DNA of 38,304 nucleotides from a virus. Taxonomy: Duplodnaviria > Heunggongvirae > Uroviricota > Caudoviricetes. The stretch's first letter is position 1; every line of letters begins with the position of its first letter. A program made the translations under genes and the position numbers. Where the stretch lies: IMG/VR virus record IMGVR_UViG_2667527993_000018; one strand, given 5' to 3'. Of this stretch, positions 1,625 through 9,462 are shown piece after piece. The notes beneath the pieces were generated by a model. The model searched no databases. It was given only the letters and a program-made list of their open reading frames with translations, and was not told the DNA's origin.

Positions 1625-1770
1625 ATCGATCGACAAAAACGATCGATTCGATTTGTTTAATTGATACAACAAATAGATTTAAAAGTCATCAACAATGATT
1701 CAGGGCGGTGATTATTTACTTAAAGAAACGAAGAGTTAGGTGGTGAAAACGATCATAAAATGATCATTTT
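1625..1770 (-). promoter_or_regulatory. Putative mom promoter/operator region with a cluster of four GATC (Dam) sites
   Basis: GATC at 1628-1631, 1641-1644, 1751-1754 and 1762-1765 in AT-rich DNA just upstream of com. In Mu, Pmom has clustered GATC sites whose methylation state controls OxyR repression. Confidence 0.4.
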
Positions 1771-1987
1771 ATTGACTTTTTATACAGTGAAGGTAGGATC
1801 GCGCGTAGTATGTAGTATGTTTCAAATCAACAGGATACTACATAAAAGGGAAACCCAGCATAGCTGGAACTATGCTGGGTCAATCTGTAAAAACTTGCAT
1901 CAATGCTTTACTTCGAGCTCGTGGCGTATCCTATGATATTCCCCGGTCTCCTGTAAAGCAGAGATGCATAAAAAGGAGATCTTTATC

Positions 1988-2158
1988 ATGGATAAAGAGC
2001 CTGTTTGCCCTGCCTGTAAGACTCCCTTACAGCTCATCTATCGCCGTTCTCGATCTCAAAATGGCAAGACATACAAACCAAAAAATGCTTCCTGTTTCAG
2101 GATGCTGATATGTCCTGCCTGTTCTCCCCGGAGGGAAAATACACAAAACGTGCATTAA
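1988..2158 (+). CDS. Small zinc-ribbon protein (56 aa), unknown function
   Basis: Two CPAC motifs (CPACKT...CPACSP); AGGAG 9 nt upstream of the ATG at 1988; transcribed divergently from com and convergently with the esterase operon. Confidence 0.4.
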   Translation: MDKEPVCPACKTPLQLIYRRSRSQNGKTYKPKNASCFRMLICPACSPRRENTQNVH

Positions 2159-2167
2159 CAAATTCAC

Positions 2168-2198
2168 CCGGCAGGGAAACCTGCCGGTCGGTATTGTT
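2168..2198. terminator. Probable bidirectional rho-independent terminator
   Basis: Perfect 8-bp stem CCGGCAGG / CCTGCCGG with GAAA loop (2168-2187), T-rich flanks on both strands, between two convergent genes. Confidence 0.5.
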
Positions 2199-2442
2199 AC
2201 ATCATAGTACCGTCAGTTCCGGGCTGAACCGGCTCTGGTTGCTCTACGGGTTGAGGCTCATTTTCCGTGCTGTTTTCAGCCGGAGAACGACCAACCATTC
2301 GGGCCAGCACTTCATCAACATATGCGTCGATTTGTGCCTCAAAATCCTTGCGAACCTGCGCCTTCAGCACGCGGTTCACTTCTTCAGAATAAAGTGCCTG
2401 TTTGACAAGCTCTTCAGTAACCGTGCCTTTAATCTCTGGCAT
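2197..2442 (-). CDS. Hypothetical protein (81 aa), acidic proline-rich C-terminus
   Basis: AGGAG 8 nt upstream of the ATG at 2442; last gene of the esterase operon, immediately followed by the terminator hairpin. Confidence 0.5.
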   Translation of the reverse strand: MPEIKGTVTEELVKQALYSEEVNRVLKAQVRKDFEAQIDAYVDEVLARMVGRSPAENSTENEPQPVEQPEPVQPGTDGTMM

Positions 2443-2477
2443 GAATATTCTCCTTTCCTTTTCTGGTTCACAAAAAA

Positions 2478-2657
2478 TTAAATCTGACCGGAGTCTTTCG
2501 GCTGCGGCATTACAGCACCGCTTTTTATCTTTTCCTCGGCAGCTGCATCAATTTTATTTCGAAAATAATTGCGAATAATTTTATAACCACCGCTGACAAG
2601 CAACAGACAACAAACCACCGTGCAGAAATACAGCAGGCAGACGTTTATATATGTCAT
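2478..2657 (-). CDS. Small membrane protein (59 aa, one predicted TM helix)
   Basis: Hand translation gives MTYINVCLLYFCTVVCCLLLVSGGYKIIRNYF... with a hydrophobic N-terminal segment; GTGAGG ~6 nt upstream of the ATG at 2657; below the 60-aa cut-off of the ORF track. Confidence 0.4.
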   Translation of the reverse strand: MTYINVCLLYFCTVVCCLLLVSGGYKIIRNYFRNKIDAAAEEKIKSGAVMPQPKDSGQI

Positions 2658-2714
2658 ATAAGCCTCACTCTTATTAACTGATGTTACAGCCGGATAAATT
2701 CCCGGCCGTCACGA

Positions 2715-4772
2715 TTATGCCGCAGGGGTATTAACCTCAAGGACAACGCTCTCAAAAGACACGCCATAAGTTGCCCCTTTGGTGACATCTGTCAGTGTCA
2801 GCGTATCTTTGGCAGGGGAAAGTGCATCTTTCACCATCTGGAATGCCTGGCCCGGAGTGCCATCCAGCACAGGCGTTACCTGGGCACTTCCCGCCGTAAA
2901 CTTCAGGACAAGTGTATGCCACTGGTTATTGTAGGCTCCAAATGATCCCAGTTTCGTATTCCCCCCTGTTTTATGGTGCATCAGATTTAACTGGCCGCCT
3001 GTTGTCTGGAGATAATACGCCATCAGGAACGGTGTGCCTGTACCACTCATGGTTACACCTTCCGGGACCGTATCGGTGTGGAGGTAAATACCCAGAGCAA
3101 ACTGGCCTTCTTTTACTTCACCTGACAGACGGAATTTACAGGTCAACTGACCACCATGCTTCAGAAGTTCACCGGCTGCATCAGTTCCATGGGTAAGCGC
3201 CCAGGTTTTTCCGCTTTGTTTGGATACGGTCAACGCTTTACCTTCGTCCGTCAGCTGGATTGTACCATCTGTAATTTTCCAGCCCTGAGCCGGGGCTTCT
3301 CCTGCTGATGCTTTAAGTGAAAGCAGCGTACGGAGTGACGGGGATGTCGGATGGGGGGACTCACTGCCTCCTGGCTGACTACCTGTCGGCGCTTCCGGTT
3401 TCCCACCCGGCGCGGGCTGAGGCAGGGCTTCACCATCAGGGGCCACACCGGCAATAAATGCAGAGGTCAGACCTGCATATTTAAGAATTGCTGATGCAAA
3501 ACGATCTGAGACCAGAAAACGGCGCGCCCAGGAGCTAAAATGGGTTGCCCTGGATGCTGTTGTCCAGTTGCCATCTCCCCGTGATTCCGCACCATAATAC
3601 CCGGCAGAAGCGATATCCGGGTCGTGCTCCGGCAGGTTGGTCGCGGTTTTATTACCGAACTCATCGTGCATCAGTGGAACAAAGTGAATGTTCTCGGAAG
3701 CCCGGTTTTTATATCCGCTATAAATGGTTTCATATGCCGCCGGGTTCTTCTCTTTCCAGTCATAGGTTGTGTCACCACATAACCACGGCACACTGTCTGA
3801 TGAACCACCAATACACTGACCGGAGAAAGCACCAAGATCCGCACGGAATTTTTTCACCATCGCAGTAAACTGGGCACCATGCTGGGCCGGGGTCGCTTTA
3901 AGGTCTCCTTCCCCCTGAATCCATACGACAGATAACAGCACATTCTTTGGATTCGCCTCAAGTGCCGCTTTAGTTCGACTGACAAGATCCTGATACAGTG
4001 GGGTATCCACTCCCCAGCGTAGTGACGCCTCGGCTGCACCACTTGCCGGATCGAATGAGCCAACTGCGCCGGTTGTAAAAGCAGAGCCGCCACGGGCACA
4101 GGGAACCAGTAAAATCCCGGCATCAGCAGGAATCACCGGTAATACTTTTTTCGCAATATGAAGTCCCTGCCCCACACAACCATACTGCCCTTTTTTCAGG
4201 TCTGCTTTTGGATGGTTCAGCAGACTCATATTCTGAACATCATGAAGGCAGTGATCTGCTGGAATGATTTCATTGTATTTGCAGGGAATACCTCCGGGGG
4301 TTTGTGTATTCCTGCGTGCCAGCTGCATAATACGTGGATCAGGACGATCATAAGAATCCGGAAGGGGCAACCCTTCACCATAAGATGAAGCATTGGACTG
4401 GCCGGCTATAACAATCACGTAATACCAGGAAGGGGAGCTGGAAGCCGTTTCATTTCCTGCCGGACGGGTATGTGTTTCTGCATTATCCCAGTCTGACGGT
4501 TCAGTAGTACCGGCAACATCAGCACTTAACGGAATGACAGCACCAATACCCGCTCCGGTAATTTCCACGTTCGGATCACCGGATACTGGCCTTACCCACA
4601 GGCAATCCTGTGTATTAAAACTGATGAGACAGTCAGCAAATGTCATTCCTCCTTTCGTTTCAGCAGGAGGAAAGGGAGCCTCAAGAAATGCCGCTGTACC
4701 ACCGGAAACTTTAACGGTAAAGTTTCCGGGCATTGATGATAGTTGAACCCATTTGGACGTCATAATATTCAT
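2715..4772 (-). CDS. SASA/SGNH-type carbohydrate esterase with N-terminal unknown domain and C-terminal lectin-like (ConA/LamG-like) beta domain
   Basis: 685-aa ORF with VIVIAGQSNASSYGEG (GQSN motif of the sialate O-acetylesterase-like SGNH family); ~110-aa N-terminal region with no signal-peptide-like hydrophobic stretch; beta-rich C-terminal ~230 aa; AGGAACAGG upstream of the ATG at 4772. Confidence 0.7.
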   Translation of the reverse strand: MNIMTSKWVQLSSMPGNFTVKVSGGTAAFLEAPFPPAETKGGMTFADCLISFNTQDCLWVRPVSGDPNVEITGAGIGAVIPLSADVAGTTEPSDWDNAETHTRPAGNETASSSPSWYYVIVIAGQSNASSYGEGLPLPDSYDRPDPRIMQLARRNTQTPGGIPCKYNEIIPADHCLHDVQNMSLLNHPKADLKKGQYGCVGQGLHIAKKVLPVIPADAGILLVPCARGGSAFTTGAVGSFDPASGAAEASLRWGVDTPLYQDLVSRTKAALEANPKNVLLSVVWIQGEGDLKATPAQHGAQFTAMVKKFRADLGAFSGQCIGGSSDSVPWLCGDTTYDWKEKNPAAYETIYSGYKNRASENIHFVPLMHDEFGNKTATNLPEHDPDIASAGYYGAESRGDGNWTTASRATHFSSWARRFLVSDRFASAILKYAGLTSAFIAGVAPDGEALPQPAPGGKPEAPTGSQPGGSESPHPTSPSLRTLLSLKASAGEAPAQGWKITDGTIQLTDEGKALTVSKQSGKTWALTHGTDAAGELLKHGGQLTCKFRLSGEVKEGQFALGIYLHTDTVPEGVTMSGTGTPFLMAYYLQTTGGQLNLMHHKTGGNTKLGSFGAYNNQWHTLVLKFTAGSAQVTPVLDGTPGQAFQMVKDALSPAKDTLTLTDVTKGATYGVSFESVVLEVNTPAA

Positions 4773-4862: not shown

Positions 4863-5423
4863 TTATTTTTCCGAAACGCTCGCAGGATAATAACGATAAA
4901 GGGTTGAAAGGCCGATATCAAAAATAAGTGCCACCTGTCTTCGACTGACACCCCCGGCCAGTAAACGCCCGACCTGCTCGTATTGTTCCTGCGTGAGACG
5001 ACGGGGTCTGCCGCCGGTTCGTCCCCTTTCACGGGCAGCTGCAAGACCAGCCCGTGTCCGTTCGACAATTAATTCACGCTCCATTTCTGCCAGCGCACCC
5101 ATTATGTGAAAAAAGAAGCGCCCCATGGGGGTTGACGTATCAATGTTGTCAGTAAGACTACGAAAATTTATCCCCTGTTGCTGTAATTCATCTGTCAGCG
5201 CAACAAGGTGGCGCATACTGCGCCCCAGCCTGTCCAGTTTCCAGACCATCAGTGTGTCACCGGGTTTTAGTTTCTTCAGTGCCCGCTTCAGTCCCGGCCG
5301 CTGTGTCGTTTTACCACTCATTTTGTCTTCAAAAATCTGCTCACATCCTGCACATTCCAGCGCATTTCTTTGTAAACCGGTGTTCTGGTCATTTGTTGAT
5401 ACGCGTATATAGCCAATCAGCAT
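4863..5423 (-). CDS. gin: Gin/Hin/Pin/Cin-family serine DNA invertase
   Basis: MLIGYIRVSTNDQ...GRSMRHL... resolvase/invertase catalytic domain plus C-terminal HTH; sits immediately beside the invertible tail-fibre segment. Confidence 0.9.
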   Translation of the reverse strand: MLIGYIRVSTNDQNTGLQRNALECAGCEQIFEDKMSGKTTQRPGLKRALKKLKPGDTLMVWKLDRLGRSMRHLVALTDELQQQGINFRSLTDNIDTSTPMGRFFFHIMGALAEMERELIVERTRAGLAAARERGRTGGRPRRLTQEQYEQVGRLLAGGVSRRQVALIFDIGLSTLYRYYPASVSEK

Positions 5424-5477
5424 GTATTTACCTTCCTTAAAAAGAGGTGGAAAGGCCTTTTAAAGCAGATATACGGC

Positions 5478-5503
5478 ATCCCTGAAACCTCGGTTTACGG
5501 GAT
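5478..5503. other. gix-like crossover site (gin-proximal)
   Basis: ATCCCTGAAACC-TC-GGTTTACGGGAT closely resembles the Mu gix site as I recall it (TTATCCAAAACC-TC-GGTTTACAGGAA); core dinucleotide TC at 5490-5491. Confidence 0.6.
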
Positions 5504-5848
5504 ACTGTAAACAGGGCCGCGAATGCCCTGCCATCGAACGGAACGGCTGTTGCAGCGAATAAACTCGCCACTCCAAGAAATATTAATGGTGTCCCATTTG
5601 ACGGAACGCAGGATATAAATATTACATCGGGGATGACGCAGTCTGTGGCTGACTCACGTTATGTTCAAAGCATTCGAAGAGGTTCAAGGTCAACGATTGG
5701 AATGCAATATAATATTTTTGAAGTTCCTGACGGATGCGTACTTACAGGGCTTGATGTCGCTGGTGATGGTAATGCAACGGTAACCGCATATTATCGACCT
5801 GTTCAGTTTCTGATAGATGGTTCGTGGAAAACAGCTTCCAGCGCATAA
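5486..5848 (+). CDS. Alternative tail-fibre C-terminal segment (S'v), promoterless and start-less in the current orientation
   Basis: Frame opens right after a TGA at 5483-5485 and encodes NLGLRDTVNRAANALPSNGTAVAANKLATPRNINGVPFDGTQDINITSGMTQS..., nearly identical to S residues 176-230, then diverges to a different tip; inversion would fuse it in frame to the constant part of S. Confidence 0.65.
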   Translation, partial: NLGLRDTVNRAANALPSNGTAVAANKLATPRNINGVPFDGTQDINITSGMTQSVADSRYVQSIRRGSRSTIGMQYNIFEVPDGCVLTGLDVAGDGNATVTAYYRPVQFLIDGSWKTASSA

Positions 5849-5866
5849 AAGTGCAGTAGTTCAAAA
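5490..5866. repeat. Gin-proximal arm of a ~165-bp imperfect inverted repeat flanking the invertible segment
   Basis: About 5478-5650 on the plus strand aligns at roughly 80% identity (hand alignment) with the reverse complement of about 6705-6878. The coordinates given here are approximate; the repeat starts at the gix site. Confidence 0.4.
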
Positions 5867-5927
5867 AACAGATTATCTGAATAAATATATGATGATTTTG
5901 TCTTTTCAACAAAAACAAGGTGAAATA

Positions 5928-6449
5928 ATGGAGCTTATTAACGTAAAACGATATTACCCGGAACACAAACCCTATGGTGAGGATGTTCAGTATTTCCAGA
6001 GTGAGGACGGAAGGGATTTTTATGAATCTATCCCGCTTTTCACAAAGAAATACAAACTCTGTATTTCGCCTGTAACGGGTATTATCTGCTCTGTTGCTGA
6101 AGATGTCTCTGCTTTATATCCGGCAGGTTTTACTGTTGTTGAAGTGGACGAACTGCCGGAAGGTGTGAATATTGACGGTAACTGGCAGTGTTCTGATGGC
6201 CTGATATCAAAGGTGCCGGTAAACTGGAAGACGGTTGCTGAAAAGCGTCGCTCATCGCTGCTCCAGGAAGCCAACGAAACCGTGGATGACTGGAAAACAG
6301 AATTAAAACTGGACATGATTAGCGATGAAAATAAATTACAGCTGACGCGCTGGATGGCGTATATCCGACAGCTTAAAGAAATGCACTTTAATGATATTGC
6401 CAGTGAGGGGCATTACCAGGCGATTCCCTGGCCGGAAAAACCGGAATAA
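5928..6449 (+). CDS. Tail-fibre assembly chaperone (U'), partner of S'v
   Basis: 174-aa ORF with AAGGTG upstream of the ATG at 5928, directly downstream of S'v on the same strand; size and C-terminal features typical of Tfa/U proteins; AT-richer than neighbouring phage DNA. Confidence 0.7.
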   Translation: MELINVKRYYPEHKPYGEDVQYFQSEDGRDFYESIPLFTKKYKLCISPVTGIICSVAEDVSALYPAGFTVVEVDELPEGVNIDGNWQCSDGLISKVPVNWKTVAEKRRSSLLQEANETVDDWKTELKLDMISDENKLQLTRWMAYIRQLKEMHFNDIASEGHYQAIPWPEKPE

Positions 6450-6454
6450 TTCAG

Positions 6455-6480
6455 AGGGTGCATTCAGCACCCTTTTCTGT
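6455..6480 (+). terminator. Probable rho-independent terminator after U'
   Basis: Stem GAGGGTGC / GCACCCTT with ATTCA loop followed by TTTCTG. Confidence 0.4.
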
Positions 6481-6483
6481 GGT

Positions 6484-7395
6484 TTACACTGAACTTACCG
6501 TTCTCCAGGCATTATTAATATAAATCTGAACCGGGCGATAATAGACCCCACCGATATTGTCCGCAGACCGGGAGCCGGTTTCCTGCACGTTAATACCGGA
6601 AAGCATACAACCGGAAGGTGCGCTGTAATTCCATGATATTTCATTGCCTCCGGGTGAATGATAGCTCTGTGCTCCAAGCTGAACATTCTGTACATACCGG
6701 CCATCTGCGGTTGACTGCGTCATTCCTGACGTGATGTTGATATCCTGCGTTCCGTCAAAAGGAACGCCATTAATATTTCTTGGGGTGGCGAGTCTGTTTG
6801 CTGCCACGGCGGTTCCACCCGATGGCAGGGCATCAGCAGCCTTATTTACCGTTTCCCGTAAACCGACGTTATCGATAAAAGCGCCTTTATCCGGAATGTC
6901 TGCGCCGTTCTGCTCCCTGCGCAGGTAACGGTTATCACCTTCGCTTTTGCTGTAAACATCCAGATTATTACGGGCGGTTCCCGCATTCTCCAGGTCGGCA
7001 AGGTTCTGATCCTTCGCCAGAGCATTAACGTCACCGGGACCAAGACTGTTTTTTGTGGCAAGCGCCCCAAGACCAAGATAACCACGGGCAAGACGCTGGG
7101 CTTCCGCACCGGCATCAGCAATTTCTTTCAGGTTGTTTTTCCGGGAAAAGGCATTCGCAGCGATAATGGCTTTAATGGACAGCGTAAGCTGGTTTAACTG
7201 CGCCTTATCCGGCTGAATACTGGCTTCAGCCAGAATATTCAGCAGTTCGGCCTGGAGAATATTCAGCCAGTCCTGACCAATCCAGCTGATACCTTTTTGT
7301 CCGTCACCTTCGGTAAACCAGGTGGTGGTATTACTCTGCGCCGGTGCCAGCGCAGGCATATTCGCCACGCCGGAATTATTATCAACATGAAACAT
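6484..7395 (-). CDS. Tail fibre protein S (constant N-terminal part plus currently expressed variable C-terminus Sv)
   Basis: 303-aa ORF after the baseplate genes, start overlapping the stop of the upstream gene (TAATG); C-terminal third lies inside the invertible segment and is paralogous to S'v. Confidence 0.8.
   Translation of the reverse strand: MFHVDNNSGVANMPALAPAQSNTTTWFTEGDGQKGISWIGQDWLNILQAELLNILAEASIQPDKAQLNQLTLSIKAIIAANAFSRKNNLKEIADAGAEAQRLARGYLGLGALATKNSLGPGDVNALAKDQNLADLENAGTARNNLDVYSKSEGDNRYLRREQNGADIPDKGAFIDNVGLRETVNKAADALPSGGTAVAANRLATPRNINGVPFDGTQDINITSGMTQSTADGRYVQNVQLGAQSYHSPGGNEISWNYSAPSGCMLSGINVQETGSRSADNIGGVYYRPVQIYINNAWRTVSSV
6853..6878. other. gix-like crossover site inside S (gin-distal)
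   Basis: Minus-strand reading TTATCGATAACG-TC-GGTTTACGGGAA; crossover falls in S codons D-N-V-G-L-R and preserves reading frame on inversion. Confidence 0.6.
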
Positions 7396-7955
7396 TAAAT
7401 AGTCTCCTCTTCATGGCTGTTTGCATACACGTAAATAAACGTCTGCCATGCAGGCTTATAACGGTTCAGAATACATTCCAGCGCACCGCCTTCATAAATA
7501 CGCAGCGGCGTGAGAATATCATCCAGCACATTCATATTCCGGTAGCCGGTTTCACTGTTAATCGTGACAATACTGACCCACTGTGAATCCGGTGATGGCT
7601 GAATATCTATTTCATAACCAAACTCTGCCGCAAACCGGATATAAAATTCACGGTTAAGAGAGGGTTTCATCCGGTATTTATTCCCGGCATAACGCTGACG
7701 CTCCTGAATTGTTGCGCCGGTCATATCACATTCCGGTAACCCCAGATAACGCTCCCAGTCTTCCAGCAGCAGACGGGATGAATCAGGAAAACGTTCTGCC
7801 AGCATCTGGTTACCGGTCCAGGAAACACGCTCCGTGGAATGACTGAGGCCCAGGCACAAAGCCGCAAGAACGGATGACGGCCGCTTATCCCATGCCAGCC
7901 CGTCAGGCAGCAACTGCAACAGGGCACGCTGATGCGGGGTCAGGGTTACAGCCAT
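7395..7955 (-). CDS. Tail protein, Mu gp48-like
   Basis: 186-aa ORF between the baseplate J-like gene and S; N-terminal LLPDGLAWDK motif typical of this family. Confidence 0.65.
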   Translation of the reverse strand: MAVTLTPHQRALLQLLPDGLAWDKRPSSVLAALCLGLSHSTERVSWTGNQMLAERFPDSSRLLLEDWERYLGLPECDMTGATIQERQRYAGNKYRMKPSLNREFYIRFAAEFGYEIDIQPSPDSQWVSIVTINSETGYRNMNVLDDILTPLRIYEGGALECILNRYKPAWQTFIYVYANSHEEETI

Positions 7956-9031
7956 GTGATTTCCCCCACGGTCAGCAACTCTGTATCTCCGGCCATCACG
8001 GACTTCAGCGGGCTGCGAACTTCAAAATCCTCCAGTCCTTTCACCCCTGCAACAGCCCGCCAGAATGATGAAGGCAATACAAGTCCACCCGGCCGCGATT
8101 CGTTATAAAGCAGGTCCGTTAATGCCTGTTTTACGGCAGCCTGATTTTCCGGCGTTTTGGGTACAATCCTGATCTCAAACGCCACCGGCTTATTGGTCAG
8201 CTTAAACACGCTGATTGTCGGCCCAAGTGGCTGACCAACGGGCTGGCCCGTCGCCGGATCATCATGACTGCGGATATAATCCGCCACCCGCTTCACATCA
8301 CCTTCTCCGGGGAAAATGTCAGGGTTATTATCCTGAACAAAAGTCACACCAACACTACCCGCCTCAGGCCATTCAGGCTTACACCATGCCCGCGTCACGC
8401 CCGGTACTTCCCGTGCCCAGCGTTCAAAATCATACTGTGTTCCCCCTGATGGCGGGTTCTGTACCCGGAATACCAGCCTGGACAGCAACTCCGGCACCGT
8501 TTCCACATCCGCACCACCGGTGAGTCCCGTGCCGGTGACCGTGGCTGTCTGGTTGATGCCCGCCTGTGGCGTGATAAAGGACAGGCGGGTTCCGGTCGGG
8601 GTATTTCCAGCGCGCCCCGCACTTTCCGCCTCCACATTAACATTCAGTGTTCCGGCTTTTCCGGTCGCAGAGCCGGTGATGCGGTACACAACACCATCGC
8701 TTCGCTGAAGGAGTACGCCTTCCGTGATCCCTGCATCCGTGGTCAGCATCAGTTGTACCGGTCCGTCAGCGCGGGAAGCCGGTTTACGGATGACACCCCA
8801 GAATGCGCAGTGTTTCAGGAGTTCGGCTTCATCAGCTTCTGTCGGAATTATCTGCCGGGAGATCCAGGCCAGATGTTCATGCTCCTGTGCTGACAGACCC
8901 GCCAGTGCATACGCAATGGCATTCAGGGTGGTTTCATTCACGCCCGGCTGCGAACCGGGCAGGCGCTGGCTGATATCCTGTTGTGTCTGTGTGATCAGTT
9001 GCGCCAGTGGTAAGGGCTGATAAGGCATCAT
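7946..9031 (-). CDS. Baseplate J-like protein, Mu gp47-like
   Basis: 361-aa ORF in conserved baseplate position; overlapping start/stop with neighbours. Confidence 0.75.
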   Translation of the reverse strand: MMPYQPLPLAQLITQTQQDISQRLPGSQPGVNETTLNAIAYALAGLSAQEHEHLAWISRQIIPTEADEAELLKHCAFWGVIRKPASRADGPVQLMLTTDAGITEGVLLQRSDGVVYRITGSATGKAGTLNVNVEAESAGRAGNTPTGTRLSFITPQAGINQTATVTGTGLTGGADVETVPELLSRLVFRVQNPPSGGTQYDFERWAREVPGVTRAWCKPEWPEAGSVGVTFVQDNNPDIFPGEGDVKRVADYIRSHDDPATGQPVGQPLGPTISVFKLTNKPVAFEIRIVPKTPENQAAVKQALTDLLYNESRPGGLVLPSSFWRAVAGVKGLEDFEVRSPLKSVMAGDTELLTVGEITWL

Positions 9032-9462
9032 TCCCCCTTCATATCAGCATAAAAAATCATCGGATGTCTGCTTCCGTCCGGCAGGGTGATTTTCACGGAA
9101 AGCGAAAGGCGAGCATGCCCCACACGCATGGCATGACATACCACGGATGTGGCAGCACCGCTTTTATGCAGCCACGCCAGCGCTTCATCAGCATAGGCCT
9201 GTGCACGGCTGACCACGGAGGACAGCGTCTTTTCACGGCTTAACAGCCAGAGACGGGAGCCAACGGGGCGCTCCCGGAAACTGTCTCCCCACCATCCCCG
9301 ACGGTCACGGGTGCCGTCAGGGATTTCATCGGAATCCAGCGCCCGCCTGTCCGTAAACAGTGAAATAATGACCGCAGTCAGCAGGCTGTTATCCGTCAGA
9401 AGATCTGCGCCGTTCAGTTGCAGGGAACCGCAACCCTGATCCCAGACGACAGCAATATCAGC
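9028..9462 (-). CDS. Baseplate protein, Mu gp46-like
   Basis: Likely start at internal ATG (MADIAVVWDQ...) because the upstream part of the 216-aa ORF overlaps the preceding gene; conserved position between the gp45-like and J-like genes. Confidence 0.6.
   Translation of the reverse strand, partial: ADIAVVWDQGCGSLQLNGADLLTDNSLLTAVIISLFTDRRALDSDEIPDGTRDRRGWWGDSFRERPVGSRLWLLSREKTLSSVVSRAQAYADEALAWLHKSGAATSVVCHAMRVGHARLSLSVKITLPDGSRHPMIFYADMKGE

Follow-up and report, generated by a model that had tools for sequence, protein, structure and literature searches.

Invertible tail-fibre cassettes are a textbook case of phage host-range bet-hedging. The cassette analysed here lies in a Caudoviricetes virus record of 38,304 nucleotides (IMG/VR IMGVR_UViG_2667527993_000018; the whole stretch is referred to below as the window). 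In it, inversion of a short segment exchanges the 3' part of the tail-fibre gene S between two alternative tips, Sv and S'v, and the same segment holds one gene, tfa, for a tail-fibre assembly chaperone (Tfa) of the U type. The closest described systems are the G segment of Mu with its invertase Gin (also those of D108 and SfMu) and the C segment of P1 with Cin, with which the window shares an invertase gene located just outside the segment. It further resembles Mu in having a TC-core gix crossover site at the same codon context of S and a constant part of the fibre gene, Sc, that is fused in frame to alternative tips; homology to Mu also covers Tfa and both the N-terminus and the tip of S. 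While the Mu segment is about 3 kb long and holds Sv-U plus U'-S'v, with each tfa located 2 nucleotides (nt) after its fibre gene, the segment here is 1.37 kb long, has tips of 127 and 119 codons and contains one tfa, which lies 79 nt after S'v and is convergent with Sv. The S protein is also shorter: 303 amino acids (aa) here as compared to 504 aa in Mu. The Mu archetype provides the expressed tip with its own tfa directly behind it in each orientation, and this arrangement is not found here. In Mu, Tfa is needed for folding or trimerisation of the fibre tip, and is reported to stay on the fibre and to help bind lipopolysaccharide (both as cited in PMC8174754).

Judged by sequence likeness, the window belongs to the Sp18 type of Mu-like prophages: several Escherichia coli O157:H7 chromosomes are 100% identical to it over the 2.7 kb around the segment, and in GenBank records the corresponding region (94% identical) is described as a Mu-like phage insertion. 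For Sp18 of O157:H7 Sakai, an invertible host-specificity region with genes unlike those of Mu was noted in 2009, along with efficient packaging of the phage DNA (PMC2669165). The switch is a variant of this known Sp18 invertible region and, as a recombination system, an ordinary member of the Gin/gix family. The passages on Sp18 consulted in Asadulghani et al. do not mention the single chaperone gene or the orientation problem that it poses, and a limited literature search found no paper on a single shared chaperone, on its recurrence in Citrobacter and P2-like phages, or on a locked convergent derivative.

The P segment of e14 with its invertase PinE is similar in having a Gin-family enzyme, in exchanging tail-fibre tips and in being inverted in sequenced strains (PMC12529663), but differs in holding two tfa genes (tfaP and tfaE), one per orientation, and in its lambdoid side-fibre context. 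The P2-like prophage of the enteropathogenic E. coli (EPEC) strain E2348/69 has an invertible fibre region with three inverted repeats (Goldberg et al. 2014, PMC4272514). Beside it we place, by likeness and with no claim that the element is the same, a P2-like family (locus L085 and its relatives) that shares with our segment a Hin/Gin-type invertase, alternative fibre C-termini and the same chaperone asymmetry, while differing from it in its P2 H/G virion module, its three sites and three tips, and a P2-type late-promoter dyad.

The invertible segment and its two orientations

The features of the locus, in window coordinates, are the following:

4863-5423, minus strand: gin-like serine DNA invertase gene, 186 aa, outside the invertible segment (Pfam Resolvase and HTH_7)
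5478-5503: gix-like site beside gin, ATCCCTGAAACC-TC-GGTTTACGGGAT, core TC at 5490-5491 (comparison with Mu gix; breakpoint mapping)
5486-5667: left arm of a 182-nt inverted repeat, encoding the conserved first ~61 residues of both variable parts
5486-5848, plus strand: S'v, the silent alternative tip, 119 codons after the crossover, without a start codon of its own (frame and translation)
5492-6864: invertible segment between the core dinucleotides, 1373 bp (in-silico inversion; match in public genomes)
5849-5927, plus strand: AT-rich spacer of 79 nt from the S'v stop to the tfa ATG, GC 0.26 versus 0.54 for the window; candidate site of a tfa promoter
5928-6449, plus strand: tfa, tail-fibre assembly (Tfa/U-type) chaperone gene, 173 aa, the sole Tfa homologue of the window
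6453-6475: G+C-rich hairpin between the convergent tfa and S stops, resembling a terminator that has a T-run on the tfa strand and is weaker on the S strand
6484-7395, minus strand: tail-fibre gene S, 303 aa, complete in the window orientation
6484-6864, minus strand: Sv, the variable 3' part of S that is expressed at present, 127 codons; its tip aligns with Mu S
6689-6870: right arm of the inverted repeat, 79% complementary to the left arm
6853-6878: gix-like site within S, in S sense TTATCGATAACG-TC-GGTTTACGGGAA, plus-strand core GA at 6865-6866 (comparison with Mu gix)
6867-7395, minus strand: Sc, the constant 5' part of S, 176 codons, matching Mu S residues 1-191 (E 1e-48) and phrog_1833 over its full length

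The gin product consists of a catalytic domain (PF00239 Resolvase, E 1.4e-51) and a C-terminal helix-turn-helix domain (PF02796 HTH_7, E 1.7e-14), as judged by Pfam, and is 75% identical in amino acid sequence to SfMu Gin. In Mu, a Fis-dependent recombinational enhancer lies in cis within the 5' part of gin; the first 120 nt of gin in the window are about 77-80% identical to Mu gin at the nucleotide level. The initial annotation had placed two inverted gix-like sites with identical TC cores in this region, one inside S and the other 55 bp from gin, and both placements are borne out. The sites share a TC core and an identical 13-nt block, TCGGTTTACGGGA, lie in inverted orientation, and align to the Mu gix of NC_000929 (TTATCCAAAACC-TC-GGTTTACAGGAA), which is found at equivalent codons of S. 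The codon context of the S-internal site matches that of Mu gixL (NVGLRETVN versus NLGLQETVN), the gin ATG (5423) lies 55 bp from the first site, and the two sites mark the outer ends of the inverted repeat.

Inverting 5492-6864 in silico fuses Sc in frame to S'v, yielding an open S' of 295 aa with tfa downstream of it. The predicted in-frame swap and the placement of the chaperone gene behind the new tip therefore both stand; the number of residues replaced is 127 rather than the ~128 given before. Residues 1-198 of S align to Mu S 1-191 (E 1e-48) and the tip residues 228-302 to Mu S 434-503, while the middle part of Mu S, roughly 240 residues, is absent. The two tips are nearly the same at their beginning, which is encoded by the inverted repeat (53 of the first 61 residues identical, 87%), share 23% of residues in the middle part and 50% over the last 22 residues (YYRPVQ..I...W.T.SS), so that only about 65-70 residues truly differ per tip. 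Both tips can be assigned to the Mu S tip family by alignment.

Within the inverted repeat and antisense to S'v, RefSeq annotates a 61-aa hypothetical protein in identical prophages (window 5437-5622, minus strand; 6638-6823 in L001). It probably just mirrors the S reading frame and is no gene.

Our survey of relatives rests on IMG/VR and the complete genomes of E. coli, and both orientations of the segment are found there. Matches over at least 80% of the query number 182 complete E. coli genome records for the window orientation and 23 for the predicted inverted sequence, which puts about 89% of the complete-genome copies, roughly 8:1, in the state of the window. The top 16 inverted matches each cover 100% of the query in a single BLAST piece, and 14 of these 16 have 99.0-99.4% identity. 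Strain SMN197SH3 carries one copy per orientation: inverted at the cores, its copy 1 equals copy 2 save for 42 scattered single-nucleotide differences, and the number of mismatches rises once the assumed breakpoint leaves the shared 13-nt block. Two copies with opposite segment states occur within the single strains represented by NZ_CP024056 (L060 and L061), NZ_CP074994/NZ_CP074995 and NZ_CP062782. Furthermore, 12 of the 49 related IMG/VR contigs that we fetched end no more than ~150 nt from the S-side site or within the inverted repeat (L011, L021, L025, L030, L031, L034-L037 and L043 among them), which is the signature expected from mixed orientations in the reads; phase variation at read level has been described for the Mu prophage of EPEC (PMC4272514). 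Inversion is actively occurring, with the breakpoint at the cores. The invertase domains, the sites, the in-frame fusion and both natural states thus all agree with the original description of a Gin-type invertible tail-fibre segment.

The single tfa gene and the two tips

The tfa product matches PF02413 Caudo_TAP (E 5e-18), phrog_136 (E 3e-56) and the Mu U chain 5yvq_B (E 3e-14). The gene is co-oriented with the silent S'v, 79 nt downstream of it, and convergent with Sv; a phmmer search with eight diverse Tfa seeds found no second Tfa homologue in the whole window. Since the stops of S (6484) and tfa (6449) are 34 nt apart, with the hairpin between them, there is no room for another gene after S. 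Two minus-strand open reading frames (ORFs), of 98 aa (6020-6316) and 74 aa (5742-5966), were considered as a hidden chaperone downstream of Sv and rejected: they match no PHROG family and run antisense to tfa and S'v, and the segment has no other minus-strand ORFs. It had been noted earlier that S is complete (303 aa) and followed by no chaperone gene on the minus strand; the 34-nt gap, and PHROG and phmmer searches that found no chaperone ORF downstream of Sv, leave this observation standing. The content of the segment is likewise asymmetric, as first described, with one tfa that is co-oriented with S'v only, where Mu and SfMu hold S-U and U'-S'. The step from there to the claim that only one orientation supplies a chaperone is a different matter: the asymmetry of gene arrangement is real, but the functional claim is probably wrong in the light of the conserved layout, the locked lineage and the spacers described below.

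On balance, we lean towards a reading in which the single shared tfa is expressed independently of orientation and serves both tips. In the mechanism that we propose, the Gin-family invertase recombines the two gix-like sites, flips the 1.37-kb segment and exchanges the receptor-binding tip – steps documented in the preceding section – with the outcome being either S of 303 aa with Sv or S' of 295 aa with S'v. A single Tfa would fold both tips, and a late-type signal belonging to tfa, located in the AT-rich spacer, would drive its expression whichever way the segment lies. In the S'v state, tfa would be read from S' transcripts as well. In the Sv state, which is that of the window, tfa and S would be transcribed towards each other, and both transcripts would end at the hairpin at 6453-6475, which could serve as a terminator for the pair; hairpin-forming sequence of a similar kind is found at the same place in the relative L012. 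Under the shared-tfa reading, the asymmetry would lie in the arrangement of the genes, with the supply of chaperone being equal in the two states.

The layout of Sc-Sv, a convergent single tfa, S'v upstream of tfa and then gin recurs among the relatives fetched via the constant part of S, where the tfa alleles are only 60-63% identical, gin is 81% identical, and several tips and both orientations occur. A Mu-like prophage of Citrobacter braakii (L006) similarly has one tfa, of 229 aa, in its segment, together with an S of 472 aa. About 18 other Gin-linked loci have the canonical convergent tfa pair. The initial annotation had proposed a comparison with the Mu G segment for a deleted U, and the comparison is informative: Mu and SfMu have two tfa genes, as does the relative L039 (Sc 64% identical), in which the canonical S-U / U'-S' order is preserved. 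The lineage of the window has therefore probably lost one tfa in its past, and the one-tfa state then persisted and diversified.

Two of the relatives show features of their own. The C. braakii prophage (strain ATCC 51113; L006 6800-10900) has at least three gix-like sites, at 6819-6852, 8780-8856 and 9190-9223, and downstream of its gin lies a gene for a 320-aa collagen-like-repeat protein followed by a second tfa homologue, a pair that may constitute a second fibre outside the switch. In L018 (5600-8110), S is split into a 213-aa part and a separate tip fragment, and gin is split as well; it is a decaying member of the family.

The evidence that bears most directly on the use of Tfa by Sv comes from a derivative that has lost gin together with the gin-side site and nearly the whole of S'v. 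It is present in 7 IMG/VR contigs and at least 7 complete E. coli genomes (loci L012, L013, L014, L016, L019, L029 and L033, and L056-L059). The deletion extends from the 3' end of S'v to about 66 nt before the gin stop and leaves one gix site. With one gix site and no gin, the lineage is locked in the window orientation, S and tfa pointing at each other; its Sv tips are of two different alleles. In four strains, the locked prophages disrupt different host genes: bcsA, flgK, the lateral-flagellar flgL and an xdhA-like gene. One of these copies, read from end to end, is a complete prophage between the two halves of bcsA, save for an IS5-family (ISKpn26) insertion in the early region, and one IMG genome carries two copies of the derivative. 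As the phage is transposing, the independent insertion sites in different strains imply productive spread. In every fully covered locked copy, tfa is intact at 173 codons (five distinct alleles, and three more by tblastn), with a pairwise dN/dS of 0.11-0.23 at dS of up to 0.43. The S protein is the only plausible Tfa client in the locked phages, because the neighbouring 685-aa gene is predicted to encode a NanS-p-type esterase and no fibre. The simplest reading of the locked lineage is that the Sv-type tip uses this Tfa, encoded on the opposite strand.

Can one Tfa serve tips that differ? The same tfa allele (copies 98% identical) accompanies two cis tips that are ~36% identical to each other, and the same trans tip accompanies tfa alleles that are ~60% identical, so the specificity of Tfa looks low. 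The fibre-binding domain of Mu Tfa is its N-terminal half (PMC9608196), which is the better-conserved half among the tfa alleles compared here, and both tips are homologous to the Mu S tip that was crystallised with Tfa (5YVQ).

The alternative that fares best is that Sv folds without Tfa, the single tfa serving S'v only and being used by the inverted state alone. While this would agree with the arrangement of tfa as an operon partner of S'v only, and chaperone-independent fibres are known from other phages, such as the Alteromonas phage A5 (PMC10579305), we consider it unlikely. Sv shares 60% identity with the S' tip of SfMu, for which a cognate tfa exists, and aligns to the Tfa-bound tip of Mu S. 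The locked lineage has kept tfa intact, at the dN/dS of 0.11-0.23 given above, where S'v is deleted, which speaks against the earlier suggestion that the Sv tip needs no chaperone.

Possible expression of tfa in either orientation

In two-tfa segments, the gap between tip and tfa is -28 to +14 nt in 31 of the 34 cases (2 and 2 nt in Mu, 2 and 1 nt in SfMu), and in P2, which has no invertible segment, H and G are 3 nt apart. Short gaps such as those of the two-tfa segments are typical of translational coupling. Every single-tfa family, in contrast, has an AT-rich spacer of 51-121 nt before tfa: 79 nt here, 120-121 and 51 nt in other E. coli types, 69 nt in Citrobacter and 95 nt in the P2-like family. 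The spacer of the window contains a -10-like TATGAT that ends 34 nt before the tfa ATG, and each of the four Mu-like spacers has a -10-like hexamer (at least 5/6 positions) whose end lies 30-35 nt from the ATG. Over the 75 nt upstream of tfa, divergence is 4-8% in most pairs, and up to 15% in pairs with L044, as compared to 17-54% for tfa third positions in most pairs. This conservation is suggestive, but is confounded by mosaic recombination and is not used here as main evidence.

Evidence for independent expression of a single tfa comes from the P2-like family. Nine P2-like IMG/VR loci (L085, at 5100-7000, L086-L088, L093, L096, L111, L130 and L140) have three gix-like crossover sites, three alternative H tips and one tfa, arranged in L085 and its relatives as H-tipA followed by tfa, tipB and tipC on the opposite strand; tfa is antisense to H in four of the nine and co-directional with it in five. 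The 95-nt spacer upstream of tfa contains a dyad, TGTGTKATTACTCACACA, that is kept in 9/9 loci; its centre lies 75 nt ahead of the ATG, and a TACGAT -10 element predicts a start ~55 nt downstream of this centre. The late activator sites annotated in the P2 record are likewise centred at about -55, and begin with TGTG. TGT-N12-ACA as a consensus for the P2 late promoters was discarded, since the annotated sites of P2 read TGTG...AGCCA or TGT-N11-ACA; our comparison with P2 relies on the shared dyad character and the -55 geometry only. Taken together, the dyad and its geometry make a good circumstantial case for a late promoter dedicated to the single tfa of the P2-like family, and by analogy they support independent expression of tfa in the Mu-like window, where we found no counterpart of the P2-type dyad.

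Several observations weigh against the shared tfa and its proposed promoter. A sigma-70 consensus scan of the plus strand between gin and tfa yielded no promoter, and a weighted sigma-70 scan upstream of tfa gave scores of 5.3-6.1, where the background has a mean of 5.2 and its 95th percentile is 6.05. The Mu C-box pattern TTAT-N6-ATAA has no match in the window, although this pattern may be wrong or the activator of this phage may differ, and a search for k-mers common to the tfa upstream region and other intergenic regions returned a few 13-mers with 2 mismatches, about as many as expected by chance. The Mu-like spacer types are mutually non-homologous, and their -10-like hexamers could be by-products of AT-richness. 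Recombination weakens the arguments from dN/dS and spacer conservation, as illustrated by L019 and L059, the spacers of which are identical while their tfa genes have 22 differences. Finally, locked prophages could in principle spread with the help of co-resident relatives.

The absence of an above-background promoter upstream of tfa, and the antisense position of tfa relative to the late operon in the window state, are also what one would cite for a switch that is partly ON/OFF, with the present orientation being a fibre-defective or low-infectivity state. We regard this as improbable. The window orientation is in the majority, with 182 versus 23 complete-genome records; the locked lineage has this state at four independent insertion sites, in otherwise intact prophages; and the same arrangement recurs in unrelated phage families. 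A majority of this kind would be unexpected if the state gave dead virions, because new lysogens presumably descend from infective particles, and the 8:1 excess would point the way one would expect if Sv virions were the founders of new E. coli lysogens. The initial proposal that the present orientation gives poorly infective particles is thus hard to square with its share of ~89% of complete-genome copies and with the locked lineage in four host genes.

No internal promoter would be needed if Tfa were supplied in trans, by sister genomes of the opposite orientation in the same induced cell or by the tfa genes of other prophages, several of which are often carried by E. coli strains. The two orientations coexist in cultures, as the breaks of assemblies at the site suggest, opposite-state copies occur in one genome, and the apparently low specificity of Tfa would also be favourable. 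We nevertheless give this possibility little credence: it leaves unexplained why the locked gin-less lineage, with one gix site and no S'v, has its own tfa intact, as well as the long spacers that mark single tfa genes off from paired ones.

Scarcely credible, lastly, is a decaying G segment, with gene U recently deleted and inactivation ahead, since, even if the canonical L039 suggests that one tfa was probably lost in the history of the lineage, all genes are intact, inversion is active, many tfa and tip alleles have arisen in the one-tfa state, and Sp18 DNA is reported to be efficiently packaged (PMC2669165). The recent loss of a chaperone gene, which had been offered as one explanation for the asymmetry, is similarly contradicted by a layout kept across tfa alleles ~60% identical, several tips, Citrobacter and P2-like phages.

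Returning to the shared tfa, a more specific form of this reading is possible, and we put it forward tentatively: tfa would be expressed from a dedicated promoter within the segment, head-on or co-directional to the late operon; the flip would also set the chaperone-to-fibre ratio via convergent or antisense transcription across tfa and the hairpin; and one promiscuous Tfa would cap two or three tips.

Neighbouring genes and implications

Upstream of S lie two baseplate genes, both identified by Pfam:

7395-7955, minus strand: Mu gp48/YmfQ baseplate gene, before S
7946-9031, minus strand: Baseplate_J gene, before S

Downstream of gin, the minus strand at 2114-4772 encodes the 685-aa protein mentioned above, with a SASA sialate-O-acetylesterase domain and a C-terminal DUF6645 domain, followed by DUF1378 and DUF826 ORFs. 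By their domain content, these genes are the NanS-p cargo module known from Stx phages, here located between gin and com/mom. The esterase alleles are mosaic: in prophages that are 100% identical to the window across gin and the invertible segment, the esterase is only 60% identical, which places a sharp recombination boundary in the 90-nt spacer between gin and the esterase gene. Upstream of com/mom, at 1626-1871 (minus strand), there are clusters of GATC sites (e.g. GATCATTTTATGATCG and CGATCGTTTTTGTCGATCGATTG), which we take to be reminiscent of the Dam-dependent control of Mu mom. Scans of the window for tRNAs and Rfam families gave no match.

If the shared-tfa reading is correct, host-range switching would be carried by the tip alone in minimal segments served by a shared Tfa; in the more specific form given above, with its dedicated promoter, the reading would amount to a general, so far undescribed, design principle of compact invertible host-range cassettes in both Mu-like and P2-like phages. 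The arrangement also raises a regulatory question, namely how a late gene is expressed when it is flipped against its own operon. Fibre and chaperone usually count as inseparable when receptor-binding modules are exchanged to give phages, tailocins or delivery particles a new target; should one chaperone indeed serve two or three tips in a natural and widespread design, this pairing could be relaxed, and the promiscuous Tfa/tip family could be useful for engineering. For the biology of E. coli O157:H7, the practical consequence is modest: a Mu-like prophage of this type is probably infective in both states.

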